Below are positions 3,302-39,813 of a DNA stretch of 64,000 nucleotides, piece after piece. The translations under genes were made by a program, and so were the position numbers. How positions within the stretch are numbered: the first letter of the stretch is position 1; every line of letters begins with the position of its first letter. Origin of the DNA: Calditrichia bacterium (GTDB taxonomy: Bacteria > Calditrichota > Calditrichia > RBG-13-44-9 > J075); assembly GCA_050633245.1 (NCBI GenBank), contig JBOEGD010000002.1:87006-151005 (forward strand), given 5' to 3'. The notes below the pieces were generated by a model, which was given only the letters and a program-made list of their open reading frames with translations, was not told the origin of the DNA and ran no database searches.

Positions 3302-3366
3302 GGCAAATTGCTCTGTTTAAATAGTTGCTGAAGATACATAATTCAGACGCAGATTGTAAGGAAAGA

Positions 3367-5025: not shown

Positions 5026-5028
5026 AGT

Positions 5029-5109: not shown

Positions 5110-5176
5110 CAATTTAAGGTTCATCAAAGTGAATCAGGTTGTGTAGCATAATTGGAAATCCTCACCTGACTTGCCG

Positions 5177-5212
5177 CATCAATCATCAATCATCAATCAT
5201 CAATCATCAATC
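5177..5212. repeat. Perfect heptamer tandem repeat (CATCAAT) x5
   Basis: Read directly; abuts the kdsD stop codon. Confidence 0.97.
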
Positions 5213-7611: not shown

Positions 7612-9991
<2,380 letters not shown>

Positions 9992-9995
<4 letters not shown>

Positions 9996-14769: not shown

Positions 14770-14871
14770 ATCGGGGGATTTCGTTTCTCCGGGAAGCAAT
14801 ATAGACAGGTGAGAAAGTGAATTCAACCAGAGAGTTGTATTGATTTACAGCGGGAGGATTGCAATCCGGTA

Positions 14872-18367: not shown

Positions 18368-19030
18368 TCAATTCAATAACGCATAAAGCAGGATATTCGT
18401 TCCCATATCAAGAGCTGAACGACGCACATCAGGTGGATTTTCATGAATTGTTGCATCTTCACAGCCGTCACTAATATCGGTATTGTAGCTGTAAAACGCC
18501 ACCATGCGTCCATCAACATATAGCCCAAATCCCTTTGGCGGGCCGCCATCATGCTTGTGAACTTTGGGTAAACCGTTTGGAAAATCTTTAAAGGAATGAT
18601 AAATGGGATGCGAAAACGGCAGTTCAATCCACTCGCTTTCCGGATAGACCTTCTTAATTTCACGACGAAAGTGCTTATCCATTCCAAAGTCATCGTCTGC
18701 CCATAAAAAGCCACCTGCCTGCAGGTATTCTCGCAGGCGTTCAGCTTCGGCATCGGAAATCTTTATATTTCCGTGCCCGGCTATATATGCAATGGGATAC
18801 TTAAAGAGGTCTCTATCGAGTATGGACAGGGCAATTTCTTTTTCGTTCGCGTTTACATTGGCGTTGTCACGCATATGCTGAAATAAATTCACGAACGTTG
18901 TACGATTGCCATACCAATCACCACCCCCATCGTATTTAAGACGTACGACGGTTACCGGAGACTGTGCAAATCCATCTATGCAGAGGATAAAGAGGATTAA
19001 ACAGGTTAGAGCGGGTGCTGCAAATTTCAT
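18368..19030 (-). CDS. DUF4159 domain protein
   Basis: RLKY.GGGDWY, GHGN, LREYL..GGFL.ADD, HPIY, GLPK.H.HDG, MGTNI..YAL. Confidence 0.88.
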   Translation of the reverse strand: MKFAAPALTCLILFILCIDGFAQSPVTVVRLKYDGGGDWYGNRTTFVNLFQHMRDNANVNANEKEIALSILDRDLFKYPIAYIAGHGNIKISDAEAERLREYLQAGGFLWADDDFGMDKHFRREIKKVYPESEWIELPFSHPIYHSFKDFPNGLPKVHKHDGGPPKGFGLYVDGRMVAFYSYNTDISDGCEDATIHENPPDVRRSALDMGTNILLYALLN

Positions 19031-19071: not shown

Positions 19072-19875
19072 TTATCGGTTTTGACGCTTGGCGAACTGGT
19101 TTCTGGCTTTACGACTGTTCAATCCCAACTTATTGAGTTGTGAACGAACACCAAACCAGCCAACTTTTGTGAATCCAAAATCCGCAGAATTCAAACGCTT
19201 GTTAATCTTGAACGCGCCAATATCCGGGTTACGCGCTACAATATGGCGAATTTTGTCTTCTGTTGACATGTTTACGAGATCACGCGGTCCAAGGTTCCGA
19301 CGAACTTGCGGAATTGACTCTTCCGAGCGATCTTCGAATACGTCTTCTGCAACCGGCTCGACTGGCTGAGAGGAAGCGACTGGCTCTCCGGCTATCGGCT
19401 CCATTGGCTGCCCGGGTGTCATCTCGCCACCAAAAGGCGTTTGCGGTTTTGGTGCCGGGGGAGGAGTCGGTGCCTTTGGTTCAGCTGCAGGCTGTCCGGT
19501 AACAACCTCTACAAACTGCGACTCCTCAAATTTACCAATGGCTTCATCAAGTGAATCATATACATCAAGAATATGATGAAACTCGAGAAGCTCAAAGATT
19601 TCATAGACATCTGGAATCATGCGAACCAACTTAAGATCGCCATTATTTTCTCGAATTGCCTTAATTTCGCTAATAAAGATACCCCATCCGGCACTGCTGA
19701 TGTAATCTACATTGCCAAGATCGATAATAATTTGATAGCGTCCCTGCTTTAGCAGACCATTGAGGGAACGCTCAACCTCGGAAGATGTTGTCGTATCAAT
19801 ATAGCCACCGACTTTTATTACAGATAGCTGACTGCCGCTTCCGGCAGGCTCAGTCGAGACCTGAATGCCTTCCAT
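19072..19875 (-). CDS. STAS anti-anti-sigma factor (RsbV/SpoIIAA type) with Pro-rich linker and C-terminal HTH-like domain
   Basis: G.ID..T, IIIDL..VDYISSAG (phospho-acceptor Ser), V..IFEL; linker PAAEPKAPTPPPAPKP; basic C-terminal domain homologous to the tail of the 19965-22613 protein. Confidence 0.88.
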   Translation of the reverse strand: MEGIQVSTEPAGSGSQLSVIKVGGYIDTTTSSEVERSLNGLLKQGRYQIIIDLGNVDYISSAGWGIFISEIKAIRENNGDLKLVRMIPDVYEIFELLEFHHILDVYDSLDEAIGKFEESQFVEVVTGQPAAEPKAPTPPPAPKPQTPFGGEMTPGQPMEPIAGEPVASSQPVEPVAEDVFEDRSEESIPQVRRNLGPRDLVNMSTEDKIRHIVARNPDIGAFKINKRLNSADFGFTKVGWFGVRSQLNKLGLNSRKARNQFAKRQNR

Positions 19876-19964
19876 TTCGTCCTCCGTCTTATTCGACGTT
19901 GTTACAGATTAACACATAAGATTATATTCGTATTCATATATACATTTTTTTTGAGCGATCGTTC

Positions 19965-22613
19965 TTATTCGTCGTCACTCTCGTCATCGAGCAGGCCACC
20001 GTTCCGCTTTGGTGGCGAAGGCAGCATTTTTGATTTCAGTTGAGCTGGATCCGGCTCAGAGATTTCAACCTCTTCAAGTTTCTTACCACGGGCCGAGATC
20101 ATTTTCTCACGAGCGCGAGATTCCGGGGGCAGCTCCGGCATAAATGGCGATCCGGATCCGGCATTATCTTCACTTCGGAATCCGACCAGCACTTCACCAT
20201 CAAGCGTAAGCAGCGGTGTTCCCGGTGGTTTAAGCCTTTGCTTGCCACCACGATCGACAAAAGCAGCACGTCTTTCCTTGGTATTTAGTTTGGCGCGCTT
20301 GAGCTCTTCATAAATCAGATTTGAGGAAATCTCGGTAAAACCGTATTTCTCCGTATTCAATGCATCGCTGATTTTCTTTGGTCCAAACTCGGGAAATTCA
20401 CGAATAATATCATACATCTTTGTCTTAACTTCAATACTAAGATGTCTTAAACCAAGATTTGTATAGCCATGAAGCATTTCGCGAAGCAGATCGTAGCCGC
20501 CTTCTTGCAAAATGCGGCGATAACGGTAAAAAGTTGTCGGTGAAACACCGGCTTCTTTACAGACGTCTGCAACAGTCTGACTATCTTCTTTATTTTTAAT
20601 TTCTTCGAATAGCTTCTGAAACGTATTCACTTTAACATCGACAGCTGCCATGTTTTCTTTAATCGCCACCAGGGTGATATCGTCATTTTGATCAAAGCCC
20701 TGCGTAAAGTTCATAATATCCGCTTTAATGGCTTTCACAAACTCAACCACGTCCAGACTACCATAGCGTCTGATGGCTTTTAGAAAACGCTCTTCCCCAT
20801 AAAGATCGCGCTGCTGGTTCATCGCCTCAGTAATACCGTCAGTATAGAGTACCAGCACATCATCCGGATGCAGACGAATGCGATCGGCCTGAATGCGCTC
20901 GCCAAACAGCTTAATGTCTGGCAGCGTAATACCAACCGGAAAACCTGATGGATTCAGATAGAATGTTTCTTTACTCTTTCCCCGAAATAGAATCATCGGG
21001 TTGTGTCCGGCACTGGAGAAAGACACAATGCGTTCGCGTGAGTCTAGAATAACGTAGAACATTGTTACAAACATGCCGCGACGAATATCGTCTGTGACAA
21101 AGCGATTTACTTTGGCCAGAATATCTGCAGGATTGCTATTTCCACGCGTCTCGAGTCTCAGTGAGGTACGAATCATCGTCATAACCAACGATCCCGGAAT
21201 TCCCTTACCAGACACGTCAGCCACGCATACGCCGATCGACTGATCATCCACTTCAACAAAATCAAATAGGTCTCCGCCTACTTCCTTGGCAGATTGATAA
21301 TAAGATGCTATATCGTAACCAACAACTTCTGGAAAGTCGTCTGGCAGCAGCATCTGCTGAATTTCCTGTGCGACCTGCAATTCTTTATGCATGCGCTGCT
21401 GCTCGATTACGCTGGTTTGCGCTTCGCGAAACTTGTTGGTCATTTCATTAAATGCTACGGCTATCTCTCCTACCTCATCACCGGCATCGATATCAATTTC
21501 ATCCTGATCGGCCTGACCGGTTCCAACTTGGCGCACCCACTCTGCCAGCTTGTGAAACGGTTGGGTAATTTGAATTACCAGAAATGCCACAATCGCCATT
21601 ATCAGAGAAAACAGGATAAGCACAAATAGCAGCGAACGATTGCGTTCGGATGCCACTTGATTTGAAATTTTATTTTCGTTCACCGAAACGACTGCATAGC
21701 CTAGCGGTTCGTCATCAACATTTTGTAGCTTTACCGGAGCAATAAAGTAGAGTAGTGTTGAGTCGCCGGCTGCTTCATAAATCGTAACGTCTTCACGGGT
21801 TTCCAGTACGTTCAGCATACCGGTATCAAATTTTTGGCCCAGCTGTTCAACCGCAAATGGGGATACGGCAAGAATTTCCAGCTCGCTGTTGGTAATTACC
21901 GCCTGCTCGAGCAGCGTGTTGCTGCTCGATCTGACGATCTGAGCATTTTCATTTAGCAACGGGCTGTTTTCTTCCAGCAGTAGATCCCAATTACTGGCTG
22001 CAAAATTACTGGCTGTCGCCGTTGCTTCAGCATACACATCGCTGCGCACCGAGCTGGACGTACGATATTGAAGAAAAATAAAAGATGCAAGTGCCAGCAA
22101 AGCTCCCAGAGCTCCGGATAACAAGAAGAATTTTCTGCGGAGTGACAAGCCCTCGAACCAGGCCATAATTGGCTGTTCATGAACCGGAGCTTCGCGGTGC
22201 TTAGTAAGACGTAACTCGTTGCCGGCACGTGTAAGGTTGTATTGGATATCGTCCATGAGCTTACGCATCATCAGGATACCAAGACCACCCTTTTTACCAT
22301 AATCTACATATTTCTGCAGGTCGGGGTTCTGTGCTTTACGCGGGTCGAAGTGTTTACCCTGGTCGATAATAACCATAGTAATACTTTGACGACGGATAAT
22401 TACGCGAATGGTAATCATTCCGTCCTTTACATCCATGTAGCCATGACGAATAACGTTCGTGCAGGCTTCATCTACAACCAACTTAAAAGAATTGATGACT
22501 TTATCGGCAAGTCGGTATTTCTTACCGTTTTGCTCAATAAAGTCCCGTATCTCTTTGAGATAGGCCATAGAGGCTGGGACAATTAGCTCTTCTTTTGAGA
22601 CGTTTTTAAACAT
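19965..22613 (-). CDS. Multidomain membrane signalling protein: RsbW-type HATPase kinase - TM - periplasmic sensor - TM - HAMP - SpoIIE/PP2C phosphatase - tandem HTH
   Basis: HATPase EACTNVIRHG / IDQGKHF / GGLGI; two hydrophobic TMs; HAMP DEVGEIAVAFNEM; PP2C EVGGDLFD, ADVSGKG, SAGHNP, YTDGITEA, DDITLV; HTH TVADVCKEAGVSPTTFYRYRR. Confidence 0.9.
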   Translation of the reverse strand: MFKNVSKEELIVPASMAYLKEIRDFIEQNGKKYRLADKVINSFKLVVDEACTNVIRHGYMDVKDGMITIRVIIRRQSITMVIIDQGKHFDPRKAQNPDLQKYVDYGKKGGLGILMMRKLMDDIQYNLTRAGNELRLTKHREAPVHEQPIMAWFEGLSLRRKFFLLSGALGALLALASFIFLQYRTSSSVRSDVYAEATATASNFAASNWDLLLEENSPLLNENAQIVRSSSNTLLEQAVITNSELEILAVSPFAVEQLGQKFDTGMLNVLETREDVTIYEAAGDSTLLYFIAPVKLQNVDDEPLGYAVVSVNENKISNQVASERNRSLLFVLILFSLIMAIVAFLVIQITQPFHKLAEWVRQVGTGQADQDEIDIDAGDEVGEIAVAFNEMTNKFREAQTSVIEQQRMHKELQVAQEIQQMLLPDDFPEVVGYDIASYYQSAKEVGGDLFDFVEVDDQSIGVCVADVSGKGIPGSLVMTMIRTSLRLETRGNSNPADILAKVNRFVTDDIRRGMFVTMFYVILDSRERIVSFSSAGHNPMILFRGKSKETFYLNPSGFPVGITLPDIKLFGERIQADRIRLHPDDVLVLYTDGITEAMNQQRDLYGEERFLKAIRRYGSLDVVEFVKAIKADIMNFTQGFDQNDDITLVAIKENMAAVDVKVNTFQKLFEEIKNKEDSQTVADVCKEAGVSPTTFYRYRRILQEGGYDLLREMLHGYTNLGLRHLSIEVKTKMYDIIREFPEFGPKKISDALNTEKYGFTEISSNLIYEELKRAKLNTKERRAAFVDRGGKQRLKPPGTPLLTLDGEVLVGFRSEDNAGSGSPFMPELPPESRAREKMISARGKKLEEVEISEPDPAQLKSKMLPSPPKRNGGLLDDESDDE

Positions 22614-22746
22614 AGAATCCGGGTATAATGCTCTTTAATTAAAACCGTCTAAAGTCCGGTAAAATAAAAGATAAAGTGGATATGGAACACCGGTTGCATT
22701 CAACATAAAGAGTATACCCCGGTGATCCAAATTTTTTATTGACGAA

Positions 22747-24693
22747 TTACTGATTTTCTCTAGTGCGTTTTATACGATCTTCGACCGTTTTAATTGCATT
22801 CTGAAGCTTTTCATTGCTCGGATATTTTTCAGCGAGTCCGCGCCAGATTTCCGCGGCTTCTTCATAGCGACCTTTAAGAAACAATGCCGTTCCGCTACGA
22901 TAAACAACCTCGTCTGCCGGCTCCATCTTATCTGGTCCGGTGGTTCCACCAAGCCCTCTGCGCGAGCGTTCAATATACTGGCGAATGGCCTCATTAGACG
23001 GGTCGAGCTTAAGCGCTTCTTCAAACACACCAAGAGCAGCCTGATAGTCGCCGGTATCGAACATTGCAAGACCCTGTTGCACGTATTCCTGAATCTTGAT
23101 ACGGTTAGCAAGAATATTAATCTCTTCTTTCAATTCAGGTGATTCCGGAGCAAGAATTAAAGCCTCACTCAGCAGTCTGAGAGCATCCGAGAAGTTGGCC
23201 TGAGTAAATTCCTGACGCGCCTGGCTAACCAGCGTTCGGACTTCACCATTCAAGCGACGCTGCGTTGTGCGCAGTGCTTCCTCGATAATTTCATCATCCG
23301 GCCGACGTTCGAGTGCAAGATTAAATTCTTTCAGGGCATCGTTATACTGCTTCTTCTCGAGGAAGAGTTTTCCCTTTTCAAAGTGCAGCTCGATGTAGCG
23401 CTGATCTTCTATCGCCAGCTCCGCATCTACCGCCTGAGAAATAGCTTCCTGCTGACGTCGATTAAACTGCTTTTCGATAAGCGCATTCGCACTATCGAGA
23501 CCGGCCTGAGCCTGTTTGTTAAACGGATCATCAGTAATGACCTTCTGATACTCTGAATACGCATCGAAGAAACGATCATCCTTCAAGAACTCCTGTCCCT
23601 TCTGCATGCCGTCTACAATTCGACCCTGGCGATCTTCTTCCTTCGTTCGCTCTACGAGCTCGCGCTCGCGACGCAGACGTTCTTCTTCAGCGAGAATAAT
23701 TTTTTCTTCACGCGTTTTGCCAAGGTTAAACGTGACCGAGAAACGATGTCCCGGAGGAAGTGCACCTTCATCGCTTAAGTTACTAAAAGAGTAATCGATG
23801 TCCATAAAGCGATATTGAATACCGGCTCCAAAAGTTGGCGCATTGCGATCGAACCCGGCGCGCAGCGTTCCAAAATCACGAAAGCCATATTCCACGCCCA
23901 TATGCAGACTGGTGCCGGAAACTTCCCACTGAGCAACATCAAACAGAACATTCATTTTCCCACCGACGCCAACCGGAATGGTTTTCATTAACCCAAAGGT
24001 CAGCTTGGTAGCCACATCTTCAGGGTTGGGCCCAGCCTTCACCTGAGGTTGAATCGCGTTCAAATAATGAACGCCAATGGAAAGATTGCGCATTAGTGCA
24101 TTTTCAAAATCAGGGCGATAAAGCAGTCCAAAATCGAGTCCGAAGGCACTACCGTCAATATTGTTTTCGCTGAACGACTGACGCTGCACTTTAAACGTAA
24201 CCCCGGGCGTAATACTGAACGGAAGCTTTTTCGCGTAAGCGATATAAATTTCCGAGTAGGTGAAGTCTGCCCCATTGGTTCCCAGAATATTATTCTCATC
24301 GGTATACTGAATGTCATTCACACCAATACGAGTAAGACCAATACCGATCGACCCGAAGTTCAGCGTTGGATAGAGAAAACCGAGAAAGTCCAGACTGGTG
24401 CCATCTAAAATTAGCGGGCTGTGAAACAGAGAGAACGAAACCTGCGGCGCATATTCCAAACCTGCCGGATTCCAAAAAACTCCGGTTGGATCATTAGCAA
24501 GCGCAACATAGGCTCGACCAAGTCCATAGGCTTTCGAACCAATTCCAGCCTCATGAATAAGGCTTTCCGTGCCGCCATCACCGGTTTGCGCGAGCAGAGG
24601 CATCCAGCAAAGCATGCACAAGCAAGCCAGCATCAACAGCATTGATGTCAGATTCAGGTTTCTCTTATTGTTCGTCATAATCATCTCACTCAT
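22747..24693 (-). CDS. PorV/PorQ (UPF0164)-family outer-membrane beta-barrel fused to a C-terminal coiled coil and TPR repeats
   Basis: Signal peptide; GIGSKAYGLGRAYVALANDPTGVFWNPAGL family signature; barrel end IDYSF...HRFSVTFNLG; then TPRs (ALKEFNLALERRPDD, ALGVFEEALKLDPSN). Confidence 0.85.
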   Translation of the reverse strand: MSEMIMTNNKRNLNLTSMLLMLACLCMLCWMPLLAQTGDGGTESLIHEAGIGSKAYGLGRAYVALANDPTGVFWNPAGLEYAPQVSFSLFHSPLILDGTSLDFLGFLYPTLNFGSIGIGLTRIGVNDIQYTDENNILGTNGADFTYSEIYIAYAKKLPFSITPGVTFKVQRQSFSENNIDGSAFGLDFGLLYRPDFENALMRNLSIGVHYLNAIQPQVKAGPNPEDVATKLTFGLMKTIPVGVGGKMNVLFDVAQWEVSGTSLHMGVEYGFRDFGTLRAGFDRNAPTFGAGIQYRFMDIDYSFSNLSDEGALPPGHRFSVTFNLGKTREEKIILAEEERLRRERELVERTKEEDRQGRIVDGMQKGQEFLKDDRFFDAYSEYQKVITDDPFNKQAQAGLDSANALIEKQFNRRQQEAISQAVDAELAIEDQRYIELHFEKGKLFLEKKQYNDALKEFNLALERRPDDEIIEEALRTTQRRLNGEVRTLVSQARQEFTQANFSDALRLLSEALILAPESPELKEEINILANRIKIQEYVQQGLAMFDTGDYQAALGVFEEALKLDPSNEAIRQYIERSRRGLGGTTGPDKMEPADEVVYRSGTALFLKGRYEEAAEIWRGLAEKYPSNEKLQNAIKTVEDRIKRTRENQ

Positions 24694-24714
24694 ATATCGA
24701 CCTGTTCAGGTATT

Positions 24715-27700
24715 TTACTTGATATATACAACTTTTGTCTTCAACTCTTTGGTTTGTCCACCGTCTAATCGCAGACGCAACACAGCGGCGTACACTCCGT
24801 TAGTGACGCGCTTACCCTGGCCATTCATGCCATCCCAGCTAAGATCACCGTCACTCATTCCGCGCGGCAGCGTCACCTCATCCAGTGCAATAACCAGTCG
24901 ACCAACCAGCGTATAAATACGCAGCTCAGCAGTTCCGGCAGATTCCATCCAGAAGTTAAAGCGGGTGCGTCCCTGATCGGCTGCCCCGGTAGCAAAGTTG
25001 GTACTCTGCCCAAATGGATTCGGGTAATTGCGGAACAGTGATTCCCGTTCTTCATCAATCACCGTGATAAAGCTGGACTGAAATTCCAGCGACAGGCGAT
25101 TCAGCGGCGCATCGAGGATCTTATCGATTACTTCAACGCTGGAAGCAAAGGTGCCCACTTCCTGCTCCGCACGCACATCGTCCAGACGCATGGCAAACTT
25201 ACGACTCGGTGCACCAGATGCAAGGTCCATCAACACCACCAGGCGTGTAGGCAAATTATCAATAACCTCTGCGGATGGATTAAACTCTACGACAAATGGA
25301 TTTGCCGTAGCACTGGTTATCTGTAATTCGCCAAACACGTCCTGCACGGGGGTTTTACCGGCAAGAGAGTTTAGGTAGAAATCTTCACTTACCACGCGCA
25401 CGCGTGAAATAAGCGTTTCCGGGTCAAGAATAGGTTCATTATTCGCCCCGTCACGCAGCGATAACGTGAAGTTGCGTATTTGGGTGGTCTCATTTCGGTT
25501 CGGATTTGTGAACTCCAGTCCAAAGGCCGGCACATCAGGCTCACCCTGGAAGAAGTTGTTCTCACGTTCAACACTAAATTTCTCGACAAAGACCTGTCCC
25601 GCAATCATATTAATAAAAAATGTCAGCGAGTCATTCTGCACATCGACAGTACCACTGGTATTGTTATCTGTGGGCAATCCCAGGAAGCCAATACCAATTT
25701 CAGTATTAATATTCGTATCTGCCGGAGCAACCAGCTGCCAGGTTACGATAGCAGAATCGATTGCATTATCAATCGTAAAGTTCTGAACAGCTGTGCTGCC
25801 ATTTGTTAACTGAAATTCAGGACTGTTCACGCGAAGCTGGACAGCTCCATTTCCATTCACGTCGGCAACACCAAGATTTTTAATAACGGCATTGATAACA
25901 AATTCCTGCTGCTGCGTAATACGGAGTAGATTTTGTCCAGTAGTCGATCGCAGATCAATAAGCGCACGTCTCTCGGTGGTAACAGATGCCGTAAGAGAAT
26001 CTTTCACTATGATAGAACTGTTGTTGCGGTCAATTCCTGTAACCAGAACCTTCAGCGTGCCACTTTCCGATCCGGACGGCAAATTCTCAGGAGCCATAAT
26101 CGGCCATCGGGTAGTCGCTCCGCTAAAGTCACGGATCGAATCACCCGGCGTAGCATATTGATAGCCTTCCGGCAAAAAGAGAGTCGCTTGCCGGTTAATC
26201 ACGTTACCCGGCGCCTCAATCGTCACGTCCACATTAAAACTCTGATCCGTTGATACGGTTTGCGGAGCAACGACAGACAGCACGCTGATTTCCGGCATTT
26301 CATCGATGTTTATTCCGATCGAATCTTTACCTACGCTTACAAAAGCGGCCGCATCGGTATTCACATCAAAAGGCACCGGATCAATAATCGCGCGCACAAA
26401 AGACTGCGTGGCAAATTTACTGAGTTGTGTGTAGAGGTCATCGATATCTGCTTCCAGCTGCTGTTTTTCAAGCAAATCGGACGCACTTCCACCACCTTCG
26501 TTTACCTGTTGACTGCTCTGTAGGCGACGAATAACATCTGCGTGCAGCTCGCTCTTTATGCGAATATCGTCTTTCACTTTTGCAGCTTGTGTGCTTACAG
26601 CTGCCCGGATTGTCCAGGTTAATGAATCACCGATTGCAAATGGCTGCTGAACATCTCCCTGAACAACTTGCAAACTATCACCCAGCTCGAGCCTGATCTG
26701 ACCTTGTGGCGTGTTTCCAATTTCTGCTTCACCATTATTCCTAACCACCGACTGATAGACAAATTCCTGTCCAAAGCTCACGGTATTATTTGAAACTCCA
26801 CTGACAATTTCACTTTCGAGTACCAGATTCGCGCGTTCAACAAGTTCAAGAACGAAGTCTAATTCATCAACAACCACGCTGCCCGGATTATTTCCATCTT
26901 CACCGCGCATGGCAATCTTCAACGTAAAGGGTGCCGCTTTCTTATCTGAAGATTCGCCGTCTTTCACCGCTTCTTCTTCTTCTTCGGTATTAGGCATTGC
27001 ATCCGTCTTTGAGACGTCCTTTTGCAGTACCTGTGGAGCAAAGACTTCCCAAAAAACAGTTGTATCTGGTTTGAAGGTTTTAACCAGCGTGTCGGCAAGA
27101 AATCCTGCCCCCGCCGGCAACAGCAGCTCGGCAATCAGATCTTCCTGCGCAATATTTCCGGTATAGGCTCCTTCTACTCTCAGAACAAATCGTTGACCGG
27201 TTGAGAGCGTGTTATCTACGGCACCGGCAGGCTCGATTATCTCGGCGAGCGCAACCTGCACGCTGGCACCGCTACCGACGACAACTGGTAATATCACTTC
27301 AGGCGTTTCAAAAAATGCCAGCGTATCCGGAAAGTTGTTATTCTGATCCTGCACATCGCTATCGATAATCGTTGTCGTAAAATTTACATCCCCCGTGTCG
27401 GCAAGCGCATTGAGCGTGAACGTAGCTTGCCCGACATTATTAGTCAGCTTGATATATTCAGTTATCTCACGTTCCTCAGGAAGTGTACCACCAACGATAG
27501 TCATTAAGGTATCCACTGCAAAGCGAACAAGCACCGAATCGGGAGTCGTAATCGCTGTTCCGGTATTATTCAGGATAACACTGACCGGAATATTCGTTTG
27601 ATTTTGCGAGAATTGAGTATTGGTATCAAACGAAAGTGTCAGTGCAGCACGTTCAACGGTGACCACTCCGACTCTGTCGGTCTGATCGATAACTTCTGCC

Positions 27701-33700: not shown

Positions 33701-36700
33701 GGCACCGCAGCAACAGAGTCGCTGGCAATCTGACGCATCGAAATTAAGTTTAATGAGACACCCGATCCGGCAGCCGCATCTGCTGTAACCGTAGCCGTTC
33801 GGGTCGGACTCGCCGTCAGCGTTGCCGTTAAGCTTTGAGTACCGACGGTATTGCCCAGCTGCCAGGTCGGAGAAATTTCACCGGAGCCGTTGGTTGTGCC
33901 GGACGGCGGAGTGATGATACCGCCTTGCGGAGAGCTGAAGTTCACTGCTGCTCCTGAGACAATATTTCCGAAACTATCCATCGCTCGGAAAACAATCGGA
34001 CTCCCTAACGTTTGCCCGACAGTACCGTTTTGTTCATCACCAGAGATGGCAACAATACTATCTACGGCAGCAGGTTGATTCGCCGTTCCGGTAAAGTTAA
34101 TAAACGTGGGTGTTGTTGTAGCGGTAGATGCCTGAACTGTGTACGCACCCAGCCTACTTCCCAGCGTCAACTGTGTGGATGCCTGACCTGAGGCATTTGT
34201 CGCCTGCGAGAAGACACTCAGCGACGCATTTTCTGCTCCGGAAGGTTGATTGGTGATTGCAAAGCTTACCAAGACTCCTTCTGCCGGGTTTCCATTAGCA
34301 TCTTCAACCTGAACGGTAAAGGAGTTTCCGAGCGTCGCCCCAACTGTTCCTGTGCCCGTAGTGCTTCCAACGGAGGCAAGCGTTGAAGCTGAGCCGGCAC
34401 TGACGAGAGCGTAATAGGTCAGGCTGTTCGGAACAGTAACACCACCGGAGAACTGTGCAGAGAGACTATCTGTGGTTGCAGTTCCGTGCACGGTCCATCG
34501 TGTTGCAGCTATTCCTTCAGCATTGGTAACAGCCGATACCGGATTGACGGAACCGCCGGCAAGTGGCGTAAAATCTATGCTTATACCGGACACCGGATTA
34601 GAGAAAGCGTCTTCAACGAAGACCTCTATATCTCTGGGCAATTCGCTATTTATAGGCGCTGCCTGACTATCAGAGGCAGCAATCTTTGTTAGCGTCGCAG
34701 GTGCGCCGGCAACCACACTAAGTGTAGAGGTCAGATCTGTTAAAGAGCCGCCGTTCTGTGTTGCTCGCAAGCGTCCATTTCCGACAGTCTGTGCTGTTAA
34801 CATAGTTGACGTCGCGGGACCACTCGTTGAAAGTACACCGATGCCATCACCTTCAATCGCCCAATTGGAAGAGACGAGCGAAACAAAATTCCCATCACTG
34901 TCATAACCTCCTGCAAAGGCAGTTAGCGTGGTACCGGCACTTAAAGTCGTCGTATCAATTTCAGAAGCCGCACCGGTTGCGCCATCCTGAATGCGAATCT
35001 GTGAAATCGCTCCAGACTGCACCGTTATTGTAGCTGTTGTATCATCTGCCAGTCCACTAATCGTACGAATCTGCCCGGACTGCGTTGTTGTGGGGGAGAA
35101 ATTTATCGAGCTGGCTGGTCCGGCAGGCACTCCGACTAATCCAATGCCAGCCCAGCTAACCGAAACATCGGCAAGATAATTTCCAAACGCATCGTAGGAA
35201 GCAGCAAAAAGGGTTATTGTGGTATCAGTATCGATAGTTAATGGTGTTGCCTCATAGGCGACACCACCATTGTTGGCAGCGCTACGAATTAAAATTGAGG
35301 CCGCTGTTCCTGCATTAACTGTAATGACGCCGGTCTGATCAAATACATTCGCATCGGAAACAGCTTCAGCCCGTATCACGCCATTTCCCGTTCCGGTAGC
35401 GGTAAACACAACGCTGTCTACGGCGTTCTGTGTTGCCGAACCGCCTTGAAATTCACCAAGCGTGGTCGGACTAACTGTCCAATTACTGCTAATGTTGCCA
35501 ATTCGATTATCATCGCTATCATAACCAACTGCAAAAACGGTTAACGTGGCTCCCACATCAAGCGATGGTACATTGCCAACCTCGGTACCGGCATCCAGGC
35601 TATCTGTCTGAATTTTAACAAAGGATAAAGCGCCGGCATTAACGGTAATCGTTCCGGTAAGCTCGGCAACAACACCGGGATTCCCCGGGATACTCAGCTG
35701 CAACACCCCGCTGCCGCTGGCTGCCGGGCTAAAGCTGATTGAGGAACCGGTAAAAGGAAATGTAAGCGGTGGAGAAGGCGTAAGCGTTCCGCTAGCAACC
35801 GCCCACTGCACCGTTGCAATATCTTCAATATAATTGCCAAACAGGTCGTAACCAGCTGCATACAGGTTCAACGTTTCGGTGGAGGCTATTGAAATATTCA
35901 CGCCACCAAGATCATTTCCAGTATTTCCTGCCTCGCTACGAACCCGCAGTTCAGCGACAGGCCCGGCCGTTACAGTAAGCAGTTCGGACGAGCCGGAACG
36001 ACTGTTATCGCTGTCCAGCTGCGCCAATACGGTGAACGTTCCAGCGGTGTTATCCGAAACCTGAATTGCATCGACAGAGTCATTGCTAAAGGTATAGGTG
36101 TTAGACGGGCTGAAGGTCGCAGTTGCCGAACCGACGGCGGACATGGTATAACTTTCTGAATTGACCACGCCATTGCCAAACACATCTCTCGCCACCACCT
36201 CTAAATTTAGCGGTGCGCTGGCAAGCACCGTGGATGAGCCAATTACGTTTATCTCAAAATAACTTATCTCACCACTCTTCAGCGGAATGGTTATGGTAGT
36301 GGTTACGCCACCAAAGCTCACCTGAATTTGGTCACTACCAACCGCAGTAGACGTGCTGGCACGATAATCGACTTCAGCGACACCCGTGGCATCGGTAGCA
36401 TCTGTGGTTGAGGTACCACCCGTTGTAAACTGAGCATCGCCGGTAAGAATTTGAAAGCTAACGGTGCTGTCCGGATGAATATTTCCAAAGGCGTCTACCA
36501 ATCGCACCTGGAGACGACGTGTTGCCCCGGCTTCAATGGAATCAGTAGATGAAACAATCTGAAATGCTGCCGGTGCTGCCGGAACCACGGTAATATTGGT
36601 GGAAACAGCATCCTTATTGGCATCTGTAATATCAAAAACACGGACATTGAAATTGCCAACGACATTATCTGTTACCGTTCGAACAAAGTTAGTTGCACCG

Positions 36701-38040
36701 GCAAAGCCGACGGTGTCCTGTGAGAAAGTCGCAGTTGAACTTCCCAATGCGCGAAAGGTAACCGACTCCGTATTATTGATAGGATTATCGAATTGATCGA
36801 GAGCTGTGACCGTCAAGTTTAAGGGAGTGCCCGCAGCAACTGTTGCCGACGCAGGAACGACGCTATAGCTTTCAACTTGTGATGATGACGTTACATTAAA
36901 TGAAGTACTTAGCGAGGCTCTTCCCGCTTCATTGAGATAGGTATAGGCATCGAAGTTTACAGCTGTTGCACCGGTTGTTGTCGGCACATTTGCCCGAAAA
37001 CTCACCGAAATGTCGTCGCGAATACTCAGTGGCGGAAGGCGAATAAACAAGCTGTCACTATTTGTATCGTAAAACCAGGTCGCCAGATTTGGAAAGAAAT
37101 TGTACTCTGCAACCGTCGGAGCTGTGTTTCGCTGAATAAAAAAGAACGAGTTTCCATCGACAAGAATAGTATCAATTATCGAGATGGGAGACGAAAACGG
37201 ATTGTCAATGCGGATCACATCGGCTTTCCCATTATCAACAAAAGAAGCCGTTGCCGTAAGAGATGTTGTTTCTAAACGAAACTGCTGTGCATTCGTTCCG
37301 GCTTCAGCAGATGTCGGAACAATGGCAGCAGTACCACTTAGATTCGACAGTGGGAAAAACAGCATCGCCAAACCTTCCGAAAGGACCGGATCGTTGGTTC
37401 CGTATTCTACTACATCAGCGCCAAAGCGAATCCCCTCGGTTGCATTTCGACCTATTTCATCATTCAACCCTGTTCCAAGGTCGAGATATTGCATTTTGAT
37501 CAGATTTGTCGTCTCATATAGAATTACCTGAAAAGTGAGGGTTCCGCTACTCGAATTCAGCTGAGCATTGCTCCACTCGATAATGTGCTTGCGGTACGGG
37601 GCGGTGCCAATCGTTTTGCTGTAAATCTGCCCGTTTACCGGACCGTTCAAAACCAAGTTATCCCAAAAGACCGCAATCAACTGATCAGGATCAGTGTTCG
37701 GAGGCAATGCATCATTGCTAGGAAAGCTGTTATTACCATAATCAGTAAACGTAACATAACCGTTTGTACTGACATACATGGTCGTAAATGACTGCGAATA
37801 AAAATCAAAAGTAAACGGCAGGTTTACGGTATACACTTCATTGTCATCACCGACATTGCCGATGACCGTTCCATCTGAAATTTCTATCCAGCCAAATTCA
37901 ACATTACCGGTATCAGCCCAGGCATAGCCGGCAGGACTGGGTGTTCCAATAATCTCCGCAAACGCAACCGTGTTAAATGCACAGAGCAGGGCGACAATAA
38001 TAAACGATTTTTTTATCACACGAATCATGGTGTGTTCCAT
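24715..38040 (-). CDS. Giant (4441 aa) secreted Ig-repeat surface protein/adhesin with N-terminal NIDO-like domain and C-terminal FlgD-Ig/T9SS-like sorting domain
   Basis: Signal peptide; LPFTFDFY..YVSTNGYVTF..IAVFWDNL..FQVILYE (nidogen-like); Big_1-like D.FGN repeats; CARDB-like P....G....N.G repeats; C-terminal NYPNPF...LRIYTLVGRLV...WDGMNGQGKRVTNGVY...KTKVVYIK. Confidence 0.9.
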   Translation of the reverse strand: MEHTMIRVIKKSFIIVALLCAFNTVAFAEIIGTPSPAGYAWADTGNVEFGWIEISDGTVIGNVGDDNEVYTVNLPFTFDFYSQSFTTMYVSTNGYVTFTDYGNNSFPSNDALPPNTDPDQLIAVFWDNLVLNGPVNGQIYSKTIGTAPYRKHIIEWSNAQLNSSSGTLTFQVILYETTNLIKMQYLDLGTGLNDEIGRNATEGIRFGADVVEYGTNDPVLSEGLAMLFFPLSNLSGTAAIVPTSAEAGTNAQQFRLETTSLTATASFVDNGKADVIRIDNPFSSPISIIDTILVDGNSFFFIQRNTAPTVAEYNFFPNLATWFYDTNSDSLFIRLPPLSIRDDISVSFRANVPTTTGATAVNFDAYTYLNEAGRASLSTSFNVTSSSQVESYSVVPASATVAAGTPLNLTVTALDQFDNPINNTESVTFRALGSSTATFSQDTVGFAGATNFVRTVTDNVVGNFNVRVFDITDANKDAVSTNITVVPAAPAAFQIVSSTDSIEAGATRRLQVRLVDAFGNIHPDSTVSFQILTGDAQFTTGGTSTTDATDATGVAEVDYRASTSTAVGSDQIQVSFGGVTTTITIPLKSGEISYFEINVIGSSTVLASAPLNLEVVARDVFGNGVVNSESYTMSAVGSATATFSPSNTYTFSNDSVDAIQVSDNTAGTFTVLAQLDSDNSRSGSSELLTVTAGPVAELRVRSEAGNTGNDLGGVNISIASTETLNLYAAGYDLFGNYIEDIATVQWAVASGTLTPSPPLTFPFTGSSISFSPAASGSGVLQLSIPGNPGVVAELTGTITVNAGALSFVKIQTDSLDAGTEVGNVPSLDVGATLTVFAVGYDSDDNRIGNISSNWTVSPTTLGEFQGGSATQNAVDSVVFTATGTGNGVIRAEAVSDANVFDQTGVITVNAGTAASILIRSAANNGGVAYEATPLTIDTDTTITLFAASYDAFGNYLADVSVSWAGIGLVGVPAGPASSINFSPTTTQSGQIRTISGLADDTTATITVQSGAISQIRIQDGATGAASEIDTTTLSAGTTLTAFAGGYDSDGNFVSLVSSNWAIEGDGIGVLSTSGPATSTMLTAQTVGNGRLRATQNGGSLTDLTSTLSVVAGAPATLTKIAASDSQAAPINSELPRDIEVFVEDAFSNPVSGISIDFTPLAGGSVNPVSAVTNAEGIAATRWTVHGTATTDSLSAQFSGGVTVPNSLTYYALVSAGSASTLASVGSTTGTGTVGATLGNSFTVQVEDANGNPAEGVLVSFAITNQPSGAENASLSVFSQATNASGQASTQLTLGSRLGAYTVQASTATTTPTFINFTGTANQPAAVDSIVAISGDEQNGTVGQTLGSPIVFRAMDSFGNIVSGAAVNFSSPQGGIITPPSGTTNGSGEISPTWQLGNTVGTQSLTATLTASPTRTATVTADAAAGSGVSLNLISMRQIASDSVAAVPGENISVILEARDAFGNLAPNTIIDFTSAAGFNVGFENLQLTTGADGRVSNIVKTDVANTASFYNATISGVTTLELHIFHLLYVANSLSPASVSPDSVVSFQLSISNTTPAAASNGNVVLDPAATLFQFEDGTNSYSAALTGPVTLNAGGNTQLTFTATQVNPNFANSSYAPIVTLNGSNVYDVLSGQLVLPSNSLRIFSSQITDITAANTVYARGTVFEAFMTVNNDGPDTVNVNTALVTISGFPQSSISAFVNNPTQLLPNTPNNQFGFTITVPGNATPGNYIIDGQFSGTTTSGTVISDGSANNPWNFAVVQNADLSVLGVSPTVVTNGDSFSFSAELLNLGGLTTVLNDTSSFLVFGDDSVALSQSASIPPGSGPGDAVTLAFDPYVVQSVASGTPYPIQLVLSGTENGAPFNATIAFAGSGMLVQNSPNVLVSFFGIQPDSATQGTDGVLASVVLTNSGALNASATLARPDSIRLSTVNGGLGGILPISEDNTLFPLTLAANASSDTINFVIPISTDYQLGLETAQISYGFSDDNSGSGQTVDPSPTTATFTVLSLPEVVLVNASNVLTPQTVTPGLQNVDYRFSLRNDGQGSALINAGDISLAFNNGHTATLTAPTIPQTLDEGEIEEFVFNIDIDPNSSIGNDPIDVTTQFTDEISGDSYSVTYDGLDTLRIITGADPTLLQIQFVQITPENATQGQNGIGANVQLKNLSQSTVQVNTLNLVPERTGITFIRNTPLGTIAAGATALYNFTLNVDAGMTPGTVGIDAGYTATDQTSGQALSDSGAVVPDTLNILTPSAFAFGAITVSPSSVGEGQTGVSLQTTLTNSGQSPVSVNGLSLSYDVGGANITDVLVIPSLPVQLPGGETVAVEFTLDIANPSSYFGPVQASATASGLDLTSSTAVNGASVTPGNFTIVQRANLSVQSIVSVPDSAALGRTDVAVTVRATNTGQGTALLTGSTLRQGNNNFPTSLQTTGFPFTLAQGATQDLLYFVDVPDNIVLNGPDSTIFLGARLQGSDVNTGAALETIQDNLETLTVSEPSDVAFDTLLSDQFYNTGATARVVVDLVNNGGSRLELDGNTQLRLQQTDDATVNIGIPIDLVTSDTTLNPGETVRIESQDIVLTIPGTFRLFIDVNGTTFGAAFSQEVNSSQNISVGGDLFVSQLTVIPNEVSPGDTSISIALLVQNNSLPATVESVDLTLAYAGGGALLIPITRVDTVTEIPQGTATFRWEFDLPLVSPGAIIASADFVLNGGAEQINYTDPGTSFTIVSGIDIAYVGGSISPDSVVNGEVVSFSARFSNSGNTTLLVDPSTSTLSFTDGGNAYQALVDGNFTIRGTQDIIPDTSIINFTSVALDTGFASGIYPVNYSIRGTLPNGDAFEGFDTTAATELTVLPDAEITVAGINIIPNDINRGQTGVQIEYTLRNDGGSPASISELTGVFSDSDNVDITFSWQPTGISPNFPVVISPGATATLTRDFTVLNSVPLGDITAYVTGRFSDTRKPLQSATYADTTVGDMVNVTTKAGLTFSGIITAPDGALDATVSTFQEFTWSLTVDRVPGTGALVPNDSTELRLDFSNRGFYFNEQLTDSTENIVLFPDTTVDVSIWAGSEPRFGGLEAVVIDTSRDASSGEPAVLNTRTLTQPMLIEDRADLTLELLAPSLVDTSNFTARAVVQNIGTAGIVPNLVTVILDTSGLNGIRLSPMTSDTLAVQLDQEDGTRGEVLLTFDGLFESTNDTLIASIAADTVVDANTSAIAFKSSPLDTAVITVINQVAAISNERISEPAGARDGVVSTSQEFLVKADYLFNPTVVDTNTIKSQIIVPDGYNGGNDTLETPLPFSNGSIEWSVIAPDIATPVQNIQLKFTGKRIASSDSIIIDNLLIPVQTVRRAELSVVGSILEPGGALDGVVSTEQFFDIKIEIPDSGQAGTVIDSTNLVTVALPSGYKFSDMQTETTLMIATDGADTLRVQAPDTATTSSGQIEFTLVKAAPDANTGVPAEVIDQTDRVGVVTVERAALTLSFDTNTQFSQNQTNIPVSVILNNTGTAITTPDSVLVRFAVDTLMTIVGGTLPEEREITEYIKLTNNVGQATFTLNALADTGDVNFTTTIIDSDVQDQNNNFPDTLAFFETPEVILPVVVGSGASVQVALAEIIEPAGAVDNTLSTGQRFVLRVEGAYTGNIAQEDLIAELLLPAGAGFLADTLVKTFKPDTTVFWEVFAPQVLQKDVSKTDAMPNTEEEEEAVKDGESSDKKAAPFTLKIAMRGEDGNNPGSVVVDELDFVLELVERANLVLESEIVSGVSNNTVSFGQEFVYQSVVRNNGEAEIGNTPQGQIRLELGDSLQVVQGDVQQPFAIGDSLTWTIRAAVSTQAAKVKDDIRIKSELHADVIRRLQSSQQVNEGGGSASDLLEKQQLEADIDDLYTQLSKFATQSFVRAIIDPVPFDVNTDAAAFVSVGKDSIGINIDEMPEISVLSVVAPQTVSTDQSFNVDVTIEAPGNVINRQATLFLPEGYQYATPGDSIRDFSGATTRWPIMAPENLPSGSESGTLKVLVTGIDRNNSSIIVKDSLTASVTTERRALIDLRSTTGQNLLRITQQQEFVINAVIKNLGVADVNGNGAVQLRVNSPEFQLTNGSTAVQNFTIDNAIDSAIVTWQLVAPADTNINTEIGIGFLGLPTDNNTSGTVDVQNDSLTFFINMIAGQVFVEKFSVERENNFFQGEPDVPAFGLEFTNPNRNETTQIRNFTLSLRDGANNEPILDPETLISRVRVVSEDFYLNSLAGKTPVQDVFGELQITSATANPFVVEFNPSAEVIDNLPTRLVVLMDLASGAPSRKFAMRLDDVRAEQEVGTFASSVEVIDKILDAPLNRLSLEFQSSFITVIDEERESLFRNYPNPFGQSTNFATGAADQGRTRFNFWMESAGTAELRIYTLVGRLVIALDEVTLPRGMSDGDLSWDGMNGQGKRVTNGVYAAVLRLRLDGGQTKELKTKVVYIK

Positions 38041-38501
38041 TACTTAAGATCAATTTCTATCGAGCGAATTAACTGTGCCGGCGCATCTGCCCGGCTATCG
38101 GTCTGACCGATTTCCAAACTATATGTATCTTCCTTGCTGTCCAGCAATACTACCACGCAACGAAGTGTTTGCGCCTGAGCCAGCAAGTCTTTAAGTCCAT
38201 CCAAGTCAATAATCAGAGATGCTTCATCATCCATCCAGTGGGCGGAACCGGCAACGGTTACGTCATCGGAAGAACGCTTCAACCATATTTGACGATCATC
38301 GAGCCACAGTTCCTGAAGCGCCACAGCCTGTCCGGTTTTATCGGCAATAGAGAGCAGCTGCTGTGAATTGTCCAGGTCGCCTACTGTGATATCAATTGCG
38401 ATACCGGATGCCAATTCGCTGCGCTGCACACTCATGGAGTTTTGGGCAAACAATGGCAAACCAAGTATGCCAAAAAAGACCACCATTAATACGTGTTTCA
38501 T
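38040..38501 (-). CDS. Small secreted hypothetical protein, translationally coupled to the giant protein
   Basis: Signal peptide ending LPLFA-Q; SD AGGAG; its TAA overlaps the next ATG at 38040. Confidence 0.8.
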   Translation of the reverse strand: MKHVLMVVFFGILGLPLFAQNSMSVQRSELASGIAIDITVGDLDNSQQLLSIADKTGQAVALQELWLDDRQIWLKRSSDDVTVAGSAHWMDDEASLIIDLDGLKDLLAQAQTLRCVVVLLDSKEDTYSLEIGQTDSRADAPAQLIRSIEIDLK

Positions 38502-38661
38502 AGATACTCCTGTCAGAGAGTCATTTTGCGTACATGTATATTTAGCCTAAAAAAGGCCAATTTTGCTGTTCATACAACCAGCAAACAAGATATTCCCGGA
38601 AATAGATGGAGGCGGTGATTGCTGTCACCGGGACAAAAACTACTATGAACCGTCCTAAGCT

Positions 38662-39813
38662 CTAAACAATCGTTTTGATTAATGATAAAAACTCCCGGCC
38701 GTCGTTTTCGACCAAACGCAGATTCTTAACTGCCTTTTCAAAATTCGGATTAATCCGAGTGGCATCGCGAAAGTTATCCAGACCAGCCAGGAAGTAGTGG
38801 CGGCACTGCATTAAGTGAATCAGTGCCAGATAATGCCACAAATCGGCATAGGAAGGATTGTATTCCAGAGCTGAAGCGATCTTTTCTTCATAGCCTTCAA
38901 GAGATTCTGAAGAAAGTTCTTCTTCGCTATAGAAAAGACGCAGGTAGAACTGATAGCCAATCACTTCAGGGGGAACGCGACGGACATAGTTCTTTTCACG
39001 ATGCTCGTGGATCAGGCTAAGCGCTTTATGCATATCATTCTGCAGAAGCGCTTTAGAGATCATAGAGCTTTGCTGACGATCTTCCGCATTTCCGTGCGTA
39101 TGGATCTTCTTCAACATTATTTTTATAAAATCAGTGCTCTTTTTTACTTCTGCCTGTCTTTCCTGGCTCTGTAATAGAGAAACCGTACGCTGCATAAGAG
39201 CTTCTGCAAGATTGAAGAAAGCCTCGATGTAGGACGAATTCTGGTTCAAAGCGAGCTTGAAAAAATCGAAAGCCTTGCGAAAGTTGCGCTTTTCTGTCAT
39301 AATTAGTCCCATCAAATTGTGAACATCGGGATAATCGGACTTGCCTTCCGGCAGTTGCGACAGAATTTCGATTGCCTGCTGATAGCGCTTTTGTAAATAG
39401 TAACAGCGTCCTAAGTAAACATAGCTGCTTTTACGATCCGACTGAAGTTCGATAGCGCGCTTAAAGTGCATCTCAGCCTTATCAAAAATGTGCATGTATA
39501 AAAACACGAGACCAATTTTCTCGTGCGGGGCGGGTTGATTCTCATCAAATACGCGGTCGGAGATTTCAAACAGACTGTCAATTTCTTCGATAATGGCTTG
39601 ATGAAATTGATCAACAATACGACGAAGACGCGCTTCGACGCCTTTTTCTTCTTTTCCATCCCGACGTTCGTAGCGATGATTCTCTACGAATAACAGGCGC
39701 CCCTTCTGGAACACCTCCGTTCGGATGATGCCTTCATCCAGAATTGTTGCCGTCTGGAGATGGAATTCTCTCGAGCCAACCGAGAGATTCTGATTTAAGC
39801 CAATATCTGCCAT
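38662..39813 (-). CDS. Cytoplasmic TPR-repeat protein with small N-terminal alpha/beta domain
   Basis: TPRs (HEKIGLVFL..AEMHFKRAIEL, YPDVHNLMG, YADLWHYLA, INPNFEKAVKNL); no signal peptide; N-terminal GLNQNL....EFHLQT...IRTEVFQKG. Confidence 0.85.
   Translation of the reverse strand: MADIGLNQNLSVGSREFHLQTATILDEGIIRTEVFQKGRLLFVENHRYERRDGKEEKGVEARLRRIVDQFHQAIIEEIDSLFEISDRVFDENQPAPHEKIGLVFLYMHIFDKAEMHFKRAIELQSDRKSSYVYLGRCYYLQKRYQQAIEILSQLPEGKSDYPDVHNLMGLIMTEKRNFRKAFDFFKLALNQNSSYIEAFFNLAEALMQRTVSLLQSQERQAEVKKSTDFIKIMLKKIHTHGNAEDRQQSSMISKALLQNDMHKALSLIHEHREKNYVRRVPPEVIGYQFYLRLFYSEEELSSESLEGYEEKIASALEYNPSYADLWHYLALIHLMQCRHYFLAGLDNFRDATRINPNFEKAVKNLRLVENDGREFLSLIKTIV

Follow-up and report, generated by a model that had tools for sequence, protein, structure and literature searches.

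We analysed a 64,000-nucleotide stretch of a Calditrichia bacterium genome (contig JBOEGD010000002.1), hereafter the window, whose numbering is used for all gene positions below. An earlier note on this DNA had singled out six co-oriented, closely spaced genes and proposed that they form a trans-envelope system, in which a giant secreted protein and an outer-membrane barrel of its own would signal through an inner-membrane sensor to a DNA-binding output. The coordinates of the six open reading frames (ORFs), all on the minus strand, agreed with the ORF list of the window. In the direction of transcription they encode a cytoplasmic tetratricopeptide repeat (TPR) protein, a small secreted protein, the giant protein, a barrel with a TPR tail (PorV-TPR), the sensor and a STAS switch protein. 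Their tight packing was read directly from the letters: in the motif TAATG the stop codon of the small gene overlaps the start of the giant gene, and 21 nt separate the giant gene from the barrel gene.

The giant protein, its barrel and the switch proteins

The largest gene of the cluster (24715..38040, minus strand) encodes a secreted protein of 4441 aa with immunoglobulin (Ig)-like repeats, detected as four stretches of Big_1 in Pfam and NCBIfam scans. Its hydrophobic N-terminus, ending in AFA-E, reads by eye as a signal peptide, and the mature N-terminus (37300-38040, minus strand) showed a weak NIDO (nidogen-like) match of 20.4 bits for a cut-off of 25. The earlier note had assigned to the other end a FlgD-like C-terminal domain (CTD) of type IX secretion system (T9SS) cargo. 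This domain occupies the last ~100 aa and stays under the curated cut-offs (FlgD_ig with 22.3 bits for a threshold of 27; no match of TIGR04183 at E<=0.01), yet a hidden Markov model (HMM) built from 50 canonical CTDs of the same genome matched it at E 7e-11, with an hhalign probability of 99.1%. The same HMM recognised 46 of 49 orthologue C-termini, the three misses being fragment ORFs, and the alignment revealed three insertions peculiar to the subfamily. Because the domain is homologous to canonical CTDs yet falls under the curated models, it can be described as a divergent subclass, and these alignments indicate that the giant ends in a divergent but genuine type-A-like T9SS CTD. Judging from this family membership, the protein is probably exported as a T9SS cargo. 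The CTD closes a conserved C-terminal module of 560 aa (24715..26397, minus strand), and collinearity across phyla is confined to the last 460-560 residues of the giant; in other phyla too, giant orthologues lie upstream of PorV-TPR. The AlphaFold model of the module (predicted local distance difference test, pLDDT, 91.2) is all-beta and consists of beta-sandwich domains in a row, the CTD being the last. Foldseek searches with this model returned only generic tandem arrays similar to Ig or macroglobulin (MG) domains (TM-scores of 0.13-0.28) and gave no functional lead.

The gene that follows (22747..24693, minus strand) encodes PorV-TPR, a protein of 648 aa with a signal peptide by eye. A barrel region (aa ~40-325) is followed by a periplasmic tail of ~320 aa (aa ~326-648) composed of a coiled coil and TPRs and devoid of cysteine. 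Residues 50-324 matched the family model NF033709 (PorV_fam) with 109.6 bits, above its cut-off of 90, and a profile of 52 PorV-TPR orthologues matched the solved structure of F. johnsoniae PorV (6h3i_F) at E 6.7e-17. The equivalog models of PorV (34 vs 250) and PorQ (29.4 vs 220) were not reached, and the protein is therefore a paralogue, not PorV or PorQ itself. The genome also contains SprA, two PorU and a canonical PorV beside a cargo gene, together with at least 150 curated CTD matches, or 246 CTD-ending ORFs when counted with the same-genome HMM. Six of the genome's remaining 11 PorV paralogues lie within 340 nt of a CTD-ending ORF on the same strand, the genome-wide rate of such ORFs being one per ~26 kb; examples lie at G000:C10:146583, C27:18489, C2:276065, C11:489139, C41:32296 and C11:12403 (G000 being the genome of the window). 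This suggests that cargo-specific PorV paralogues for type-A-like CTDs may be a habit of the organism. By analogy with known cognate shuttles and anchors, a PorV-family barrel of its own may handle the giant or hold it at the surface. The pairing of CTD and barrel is putative, gene adjacency alone speaking for it.

The next gene (19965..22613, minus strand) encodes an inner-membrane sensor of 882 aa that carries both a kinase and a phosphatase. From the N-terminus it consists of an RsbW-type serine kinase (1-140; HATPase_c_2 at 12-138, 101.8 bits), a transmembrane (TM) helix, a periplasmic PDC/sCache domain (184-326), a second TM helix, a HAMP domain (345-394), a PP2C phosphatase (SpoIIE/PP2C at 457-652, 165.8 bits), a helix-turn-helix (HTH) region (~660-790) and a disordered tail; the two hydrophobic helices were located by eye at ~162-183 and ~327-349. 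The genome holds 19 SpoIIE, 16 STAS and ~8 RsbW-type genes, and the window gene is the only kinase-phosphatase fusion among them. The cytoplasmic parts of the sensor are highly conserved. Kinase residues E49, N53, H57, D84, G86 and G109-G112, which form the N-box and G-boxes, and the PP2C aspartates D448, D466, D592, D644 and D645 are invariant in 52/52 sequences. The periplasmic domain was modelled with a pLDDT of 94.7 as a single PDC/sCache domain, nearest to the sensor domains of WalK, DcuS and CitA. A carboxylate sensor of the CitA/DcuS type would agree with this fold, but no pocket residue is conserved and this assignment was not adopted. The bipartite, transposase-type HTH that follows the PP2C domain is sub-threshold in the window sequence; among the 52 orthologues it matched HTH_23 in 36, HTH_28 in 34, HTH_29 in 28 and HTH_32 in 22 (E<=0.001), and one Gemmatimonadota-labelled orthologue exceeded the cut-offs of all four families.

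The last gene (19072..19875, minus strand) encodes a switch protein of 267 aa, with a STAS domain (aa 18-112, 65.7 bits), a Pro/Ala/Gln-rich linker and an HTH_32-like domain at the C-terminus. The STAS domain is almost invariant and its profile matched the SpoIIAA and RsbV structures in the PDB. Its motif DYISSAGWG (S60/S61), which we take to contain the phosphorylated serine from a presumed alignment to Ser58 of SpoIIAA, is invariant in 46 orthologues. The C-terminal tail is homologous to residues 719-788 of the sensor, i.e. to the second, HTH_32-like half of the sensor HTH (BLASTP E 7e-8; hhalign probability 98.5%, E 2.8e-15). The proposal that both switch proteins carry HTH-like domains thus stands, for the sensor on the strength of its orthologues and for the STAS protein through this homology. 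As far as sequence can tell, the partner switch looks catalytically competent, with invariant N-box and G-boxes in the kinase, invariant aspartates in PP2C and an invariant serine in STAS. A second STAS protein with an HTH_32-like tail (318 aa; G000:C1:137207-138163, L088:8207-9163), with 40% identity in the STAS domain and 42% in the tail, is encoded in an exopolysaccharide locus, flanked on one side by genes for a sugar transferase and a polysaccharide deacetylase and on the other by Wza-like, Wzc-like, FemAB-like, Wzy_C and GT4 genes.

The absence of a sigma factor from the window, which the earlier note had pointed out, was confirmed in the ORFs scanned: neither a sigma-70 nor an extracytoplasmic function (ECF) domain was found among them (14, 11 with 8 shared, and 26 ORFs per scan). 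Three annotated orthologous loci contained no sigma-factor domain either, a genome-wide search for a distant sigma partner not having been made. No terminator was found on the coding strand in the intergenic gaps, counts being near shuffle expectation; promoter counts were likewise near shuffle expectation, with models that do not cover promoters of the Fibrobacterota-Chlorobiota-Bacteroidota (FCB) group. In three polyA RNA runs filed under this species label, 0 reads fell on the 20 kb compared, a result that carries no weight as to expression.

Conservation of the cluster across phyla

Synteny across relatives had been set beforehand as a test of the proposal. A search with the sensor, using one genome per species, retrieved 292 relatives, and loci were counted among the best 80 of these 292. 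Grouped by taxon label and identity tier, they comprised 48 loci of Calditrichota type, 12 that either bore the label Bacteroidota or had no label but fell in that tier, 3 with a Gemmatimonadota label and 17 labelled Latescibacterota or Krumholzibacteriia or carrying no label. Upstream DNA exceeding 700 nt was available in 71 loci, and in 70 of them PorV-TPR was the gene immediately before the sensor, mostly with gaps of 3-25 nt (median ~14 nt); the exception, L059, showed a 408-nt gap after a truncated ORF. Outside the Bacteroidota-type group, a large CTD-ending ORF directly preceded PorV-TPR in 45 of 51 loci, and the six misses were calling artefacts, the CTD ORF being present with overlapping or split ORF calls. 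The spacing between giant and PorV-TPR genes was tight in three phylum-level groups. On the other side, STAS-HTH directly followed the sensor in 45/45 Calditrichota-type loci with DNA past the sensor gene.

Within Calditrichota, the sensor was found in 80 of 86 species genomes (52 of the 53 of high quality), nearly always in one copy. A complete genome of this phylum (G006) displayed the order TPR protein, GAF-HD protein, small ORF, giant of 4714 aa, PorV-TPR and sensor; the GAF-HD_5 (HD-GYP-like) protein (L081:16818-18563) here separates the TPR companion from the small ORF.

The two genes at the start of the cluster differ in their conservation. The TPR protein (383 aa; 38662..39813, minus strand) matches TPR families, lacks a signal peptide by eye and begins with a conserved domain of ~90 aa. 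It is a conserved companion of the system, present in 85/86 Calditrichota genomes. Comparing by hand the best TPR match of each genome with the sensor positions, we located it 13-27 kb upstream of the sensor, on the same strand, in 29 of the 30 genomes with both on one contig (the exception being G082); a homologue also lies inside the Latescibacterota-type cluster. Most Calditrichota genomes have two paralogues of this protein. One of them (G000:C1:395070-396215, L082:6070-7215) sits among genes for RelA/SpoT, GreA, PspC, a sigma-54 response regulator, ClpB and HtrA. A full-length match of ~80 aa to the RomY N-terminal domain (39550-39813, minus strand) reached 26 bits for a cut-off of 50 and was too weak to use. 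Structurally similar N-terminal domains were found in clusters whose commonest phylum is Zixibacteriota, Acidobacteriota or Nitrospirota; atlas searches with this domain and with the small protein returned no named relatives. The small protein (153 aa; 38040..38501, minus strand) has a signal-peptide-like N-terminus by eye and matched no Pfam or NCBIfam family. Sequence relatives occur in just 16 of the 86 Calditrichota genomes, each directly after the TPR gene, and the small ORF of G006 occupies the equivalent position. This protein evolves fast.

Beyond Calditrichota, in the Latescibacterota-type phylum of G090, the sensor occurred in 39 of 81 sampled genomes, and the full C-terminal module of the giant was present in 31 of these 39 and in none of the 42 sensor-negative genomes. 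Five further sensor-positive genomes contained truncated pieces of the module beside the sensor or at contig ends, and seven sensor-negative genomes gave partial matches only, to the last 170-310 positions of the module. Because related genomes are not independent, this co-occurrence is to be read as a pattern and not as a statistic. One variant locus (L072:9956-17398) encodes a sensor of 1468 aa in which the HTH leads into three fused STAS domains; downstream come a ParA/MinD-like ATPase, the TPR companion and two STAS-only genes. In the Gemmatimonadota-labelled phylum of G087, only 6 of 61 sampled genomes had the sensor.

The cluster could also consist of two independent units travelling together, a cargo with its cognate shuttle on one hand and an unrelated partner-switch regulator on the other. 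The abundance of SpoIIE, STAS and CTD genes in this genome makes chance neighbours possible. However, adjacency in 70/71 loci over phylum-level distances, with gaps of a few bases, the co-occurrence of giant module and sensor in a second phylum and the single-copy core status of the sensor make this explanation very improbable. The signalling genes accordingly do not behave as independent of the giant, an association that persists in the two Bacteroidota-labelled genomes checked (G088 and G089), where the giant module, STAS-HTH and TPR homologues are all retained in unlinked positions. In these two genomes, STAS-HTH is full length with 51% identity, and the giant with its full module is an ORF of 6593 aa in G088. 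The linkage claimed in the earlier note holds for most loci and breaks down in the Bacteroidota-labelled lineage, where giant and STAS-HTH are separated from the PorV-TPR/sensor pair. Synteny across four phylum-level labels, phylum-wide conservation and co-occurrence of giant module and sensor in a second phylum together argue for a conserved unit; on these comparative grounds, the reading of the six genes as a functionally linked envelope module, rather than a chance neighbourhood, is well supported.

That the giant belongs to an accessory island was rejected in view of the flat GC content across the window and the core status of the gene set in Calditrichota. Around the cluster lie genes with housekeeping and envelope functions: Lpt, Kdo, CTP synthase, an M23 peptidase, a BamA-patatin fusion, NDK, SucCD, glycolysis and SecA. 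A compact lipopolysaccharide (LPS)/Kdo block (2555-9995, minus strand) comprises genes for an LptB-like ABC ATPase, LptA/OstA-like, LptC-like and KdsD-like (SIS-CBS) proteins, KdsC-like and KdsA-like proteins, CTP synthase and a KdsB-like protein. The BamA-patatin fusion (906 aa; 12106-14826, minus strand), a patatin-like phospholipase joined to a BamA/Omp85-type barrel, is kept, in Calditrichota-type loci, downstream of a DUF4159 gene (18368-19030) and of a gene for a DUF4175 protein of 1137 aa (14872-18285).

These surroundings bear on a further explanation, in which the PorV-TPR/sensor pair would monitor the overall status of the envelope or of T9SS traffic, the PDC domain binding a small molecule or the TPR arm, while the giant would be the main regulated or co-regulated gene instead of the source of the signal. 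The location of the cluster among envelope-biogenesis genes (Lpt, Kdo, BamA-like, M23 peptidase) fits such a general sensor, as do the small ligands usually bound by PDC domains and the position of a TPR-companion paralogue beside PspC, ClpB, HtrA and a sigma-54 activator. In the Bacteroidota-labelled lineage, moreover, the pair stays adjacent (gaps of 3-44 nt) though the giant lies ~170 kb away or on other contigs. We nevertheless consider this explanation unlikely, given the lack of the full giant module in every sensor-negative genome of the G090 phylum, the tight spacing of giant and PorV-TPR genes in three phylum-level groups and the absence of conserved pocket residues in the periplasmic domain.

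A candidate relay from the surface to transcription

The reading that we favour, with a probability of roughly 45%, is an outside-in relay running from the giant and PorV-TPR to the sensor, the STAS protein and an HTH output. As a T9SS cargo, the giant would have a PorV paralogue of its own to hold or handle it. In the periplasm, the PDC domain of the sensor would read the ~320-aa TPR arm of the barrel and/or the special CTD of the giant, and the HAMP domain would tilt the sensor towards its kinase or its PP2C phosphatase activity. This balance would set the phosphorylation state of the STAS protein, and partner switching would follow. The output would be sigma-independent, with STAS-HTH acting like the repressor CapS (see below) and/or the membrane-tethered double HTH acting itself, and would result in a change of transcription, most simply of the cluster itself or of envelope genes. 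The predicted topology fits such a relay, the barrel termini facing the periplasm and the two TM helices of the sensor bracketing a confident PDC fold.

Several observations weigh against this outside-in relay. The periplasmic domain is the fastest-evolving part of the sensor, with a single invariant residue in 52 sequences and a mean p-distance of 0.75, and so poorly conserved a sensor is unexpected if it docks onto the better conserved TPR arm. In a mirror-tree analysis, the partial correlation was lower between TPR and sensor (r = 0.34) than between sensor and giant module (r = 0.65), these values being confounded by rate differences. None of 10 Bacteroidota-type loci has a CTD protein beside the PorV-TPR/sensor pair. 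GldM/PorM was not found with TIGR03517 or PF12081, for which control genomes gave no meaningful signal either. The HTH domains need not bind DNA; the role of the HTH on the kinase CapK is given as unknown in the accessible part of the report on that system (PMC13373217). Finally, Latescibacterota-type STAS genes lack the HTH tail, and the STAS-HTH output proposed in the earlier note therefore cannot be a universal mechanism: in these genomes, STAS-only genes, or three STAS domains fused to the sensor, take its place.

Published partner switches provide the closest parallels to the cytoplasmic half of the cluster (here and below, statements on individual systems refer to the accessible parts of the cited papers). 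In V. fischeri, an N-terminal RsbW-type serine kinase and a C-terminal PP2C domain on the single chain of SypE act on the STAS protein SypA, in the control of a surface polymer and with no sigma factor described there (PMC3610818). Unlike the sensor studied here, with its TM-PDC-TM-HAMP centre and its HTH after the PP2C domain, SypE is cytoplasmic with a central receiver; domain scans gave no Response_reg match in our sensor, which has two TM helices, PDC and HAMP in that place. SypA also differs from the STAS substrate of the cluster, which carries an HTH-like tail. The architecture of CapK/CapS is parallel, with an HTH both on the anti-sigma-type kinase and on its STAS substrate, and its output is sigma-independent: CapS, a STAS-wHTH repressor, binds DNA and is released by phosphorylation of its conserved serine (PMC13373217). 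In contrast to our system, CapK is described as soluble, activated by single-stranded DNA and devoid of a phosphatase, it controls immune operons, and its HTH domains are of other types and stand in another domain order. Among the 9 PDB matches of our STAS profile, none bore the name CapS, the CapS sequence itself not having been compared. Rv1364c of M. tuberculosis (PMC9138534) gathers sensor, PP2C, kinase and STAS on one chain and in this resembles the Latescibacterota-type orthologue with three STAS domains, but it is cytoplasmic, has a PAS sensor and the opposite domain order, and regulates SigF.

Such systems also lend themselves to the reverse direction of control. The STAS protein, or the sensor as a scaffold via its periplasmic domain and the TPR arm, could govern export, anchoring or deployment of the giant post-translationally, with cytoplasmic or periplasmic cues setting STAS phosphorylation and with the HTH-like domains serving protein-protein contact. 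Precedents come from SypE/SypA, which is reported to act downstream of transcription (PMC3610818), and from BtrU/V/W, which is reported to regulate a type III secretion system (PMC8256260). The second STAS-HTH paralogue in an exopolysaccharide export locus suggests action on surface-polymer machines, the HTH_32-like module common to both partners could be a pairing device, and the Latescibacterota-type STAS proteins do without an HTH. This inside-out control is nonetheless improbable in our view: DNA-binding transposase families are recognised in the HTH region of 22-36 of 52 orthologues, the PDC-HAMP receptor architecture is typical of outside-in signalling, and for one STAS-wHTH protein a function as DNA-binding repressor is reported as proven (PMC13373217).

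The periplasmic half of the outside-in relay finds its parallels in T9SS-bearing bacteria. In P. gingivalis, the CTD of PorA binds the inner-membrane sensor PorY in the periplasm and changes gene expression (PMC12152298). As proposed for the giant, this is a T9SS cargo, also existing in a PorV-bound form, that signals to an inner-membrane sensor. Unlike in our cluster, the PorA-PorY/PorX-SigP system pairs a histidine-kinase sensor with a response regulator and an ECF sigma factor, the cargo PorA is a small protein, and the accessible text describes neither a dedicated PorV paralogue, nor a TPR arm, nor a kinase/phosphatase/STAS chemistry. Giant adhesins with a cognate shuttle are also documented, and the periplasmic C-terminal tail of SprF is reported to be tethered (PMC12618676, PMC12635249). 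In SprB-SprF and other PorP-like shuttle pairs for type-B CTDs, which we considered together with the attachment complexes PorQ-PorZ and PorV-PorU (PMC12618676, PMC12635249, PMC9143113, PMC5562754), the gene of the giant adhesin adjoins that of its own shuttle or anchor, and the SprF tail links the anchor to an internal structure in a way reminiscent of the PorV-TPR arm. The cluster also differs from SprB-SprF. The CTD of the window is type-A-like, a type served in Flavobacterium, according to these sources, by one general PorV; the barrel belongs to the PorV/PorQ and not the PorP/SprF family, with a cysteine-free TPR tail; and the conserved neighbour is a signalling protein instead of a motor track.

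A more specific version of the outside-in relay, which appears doubtful to us, makes the giant a surface filament docked by its special CTD on the dedicated PorV, with the TPR arm coupling load or occupancy to the PDC-HAMP kinase/phosphatase for STAS-HTH. If it were true, contact, shear, damage or ongoing secretion would act directly on transcription, with neither a sigma factor nor a two-component system in between, a kind of cell-surface signalling not recognised before in FCB-group bacteria. On this reading, the near-universal, single-copy occurrence of the system in Calditrichota suggests that it serves to organise or monitor a basic envelope structure and is no optional adhesin.

FecA-FecR-FecI, the analogy drawn in the earlier note, consists of a TonB-dependent transducer, an anti-sigma factor and an ECF sigma factor, and relays a signal from an outer-membrane protein to an inner-membrane regulator. 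The likeness is conceptual only, in that here, too, information on the surface would pass from an outer-membrane protein through the periplasm to an inner-membrane regulator; the domain scans found none of these three types of domain in the cluster.

Significance of the module

The earlier note's impression that such a system had not been described needs to be divided. Among openly accessible texts, supplements aside, we found none that connects PorV or T9SS with STAS, SpoIIE or partner switching, and the main text of the Caldithrix abyssi genome paper contains 0 occurrences of T9SS, anti-sigma and SpoIIE. The component ideas, however, are in print with PorA-PorY, SprB-SprF, SypE/SypA and CapK/CapS, as far as the accessible parts of those papers go. 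What is apparently undescribed is the widely conserved combination of a T9SS cargo/shuttle pair with a fused partner switch and an HTH output.

For surface sensing in T9SS-bearing bacteria, PorA-PorY in one pathogen is the sole described link that we found. The module would extend this in three respects: a type-A-like CTD would have a PorV paralogue specific to its cargo, an inner-membrane receptor would be matched with an outer-membrane barrel bearing a long TPR arm in the periplasm, and a partner switch would come with an output of the DNA-binding type built in. It also places one of the largest genes of these genomes in a context linked to function, and suggests that STAS-HTH regulators, demonstrated to date on immune operons, have a far wider use in envelope control. 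The module is present in almost every Calditrichota genome and in parts of at least three other phyla, and it is directly testable since Caldithrix abyssi can be cultivated. Kept together across several bacterial phyla, the gene set suggests an unstudied way for the cell to read the state of its own surface.

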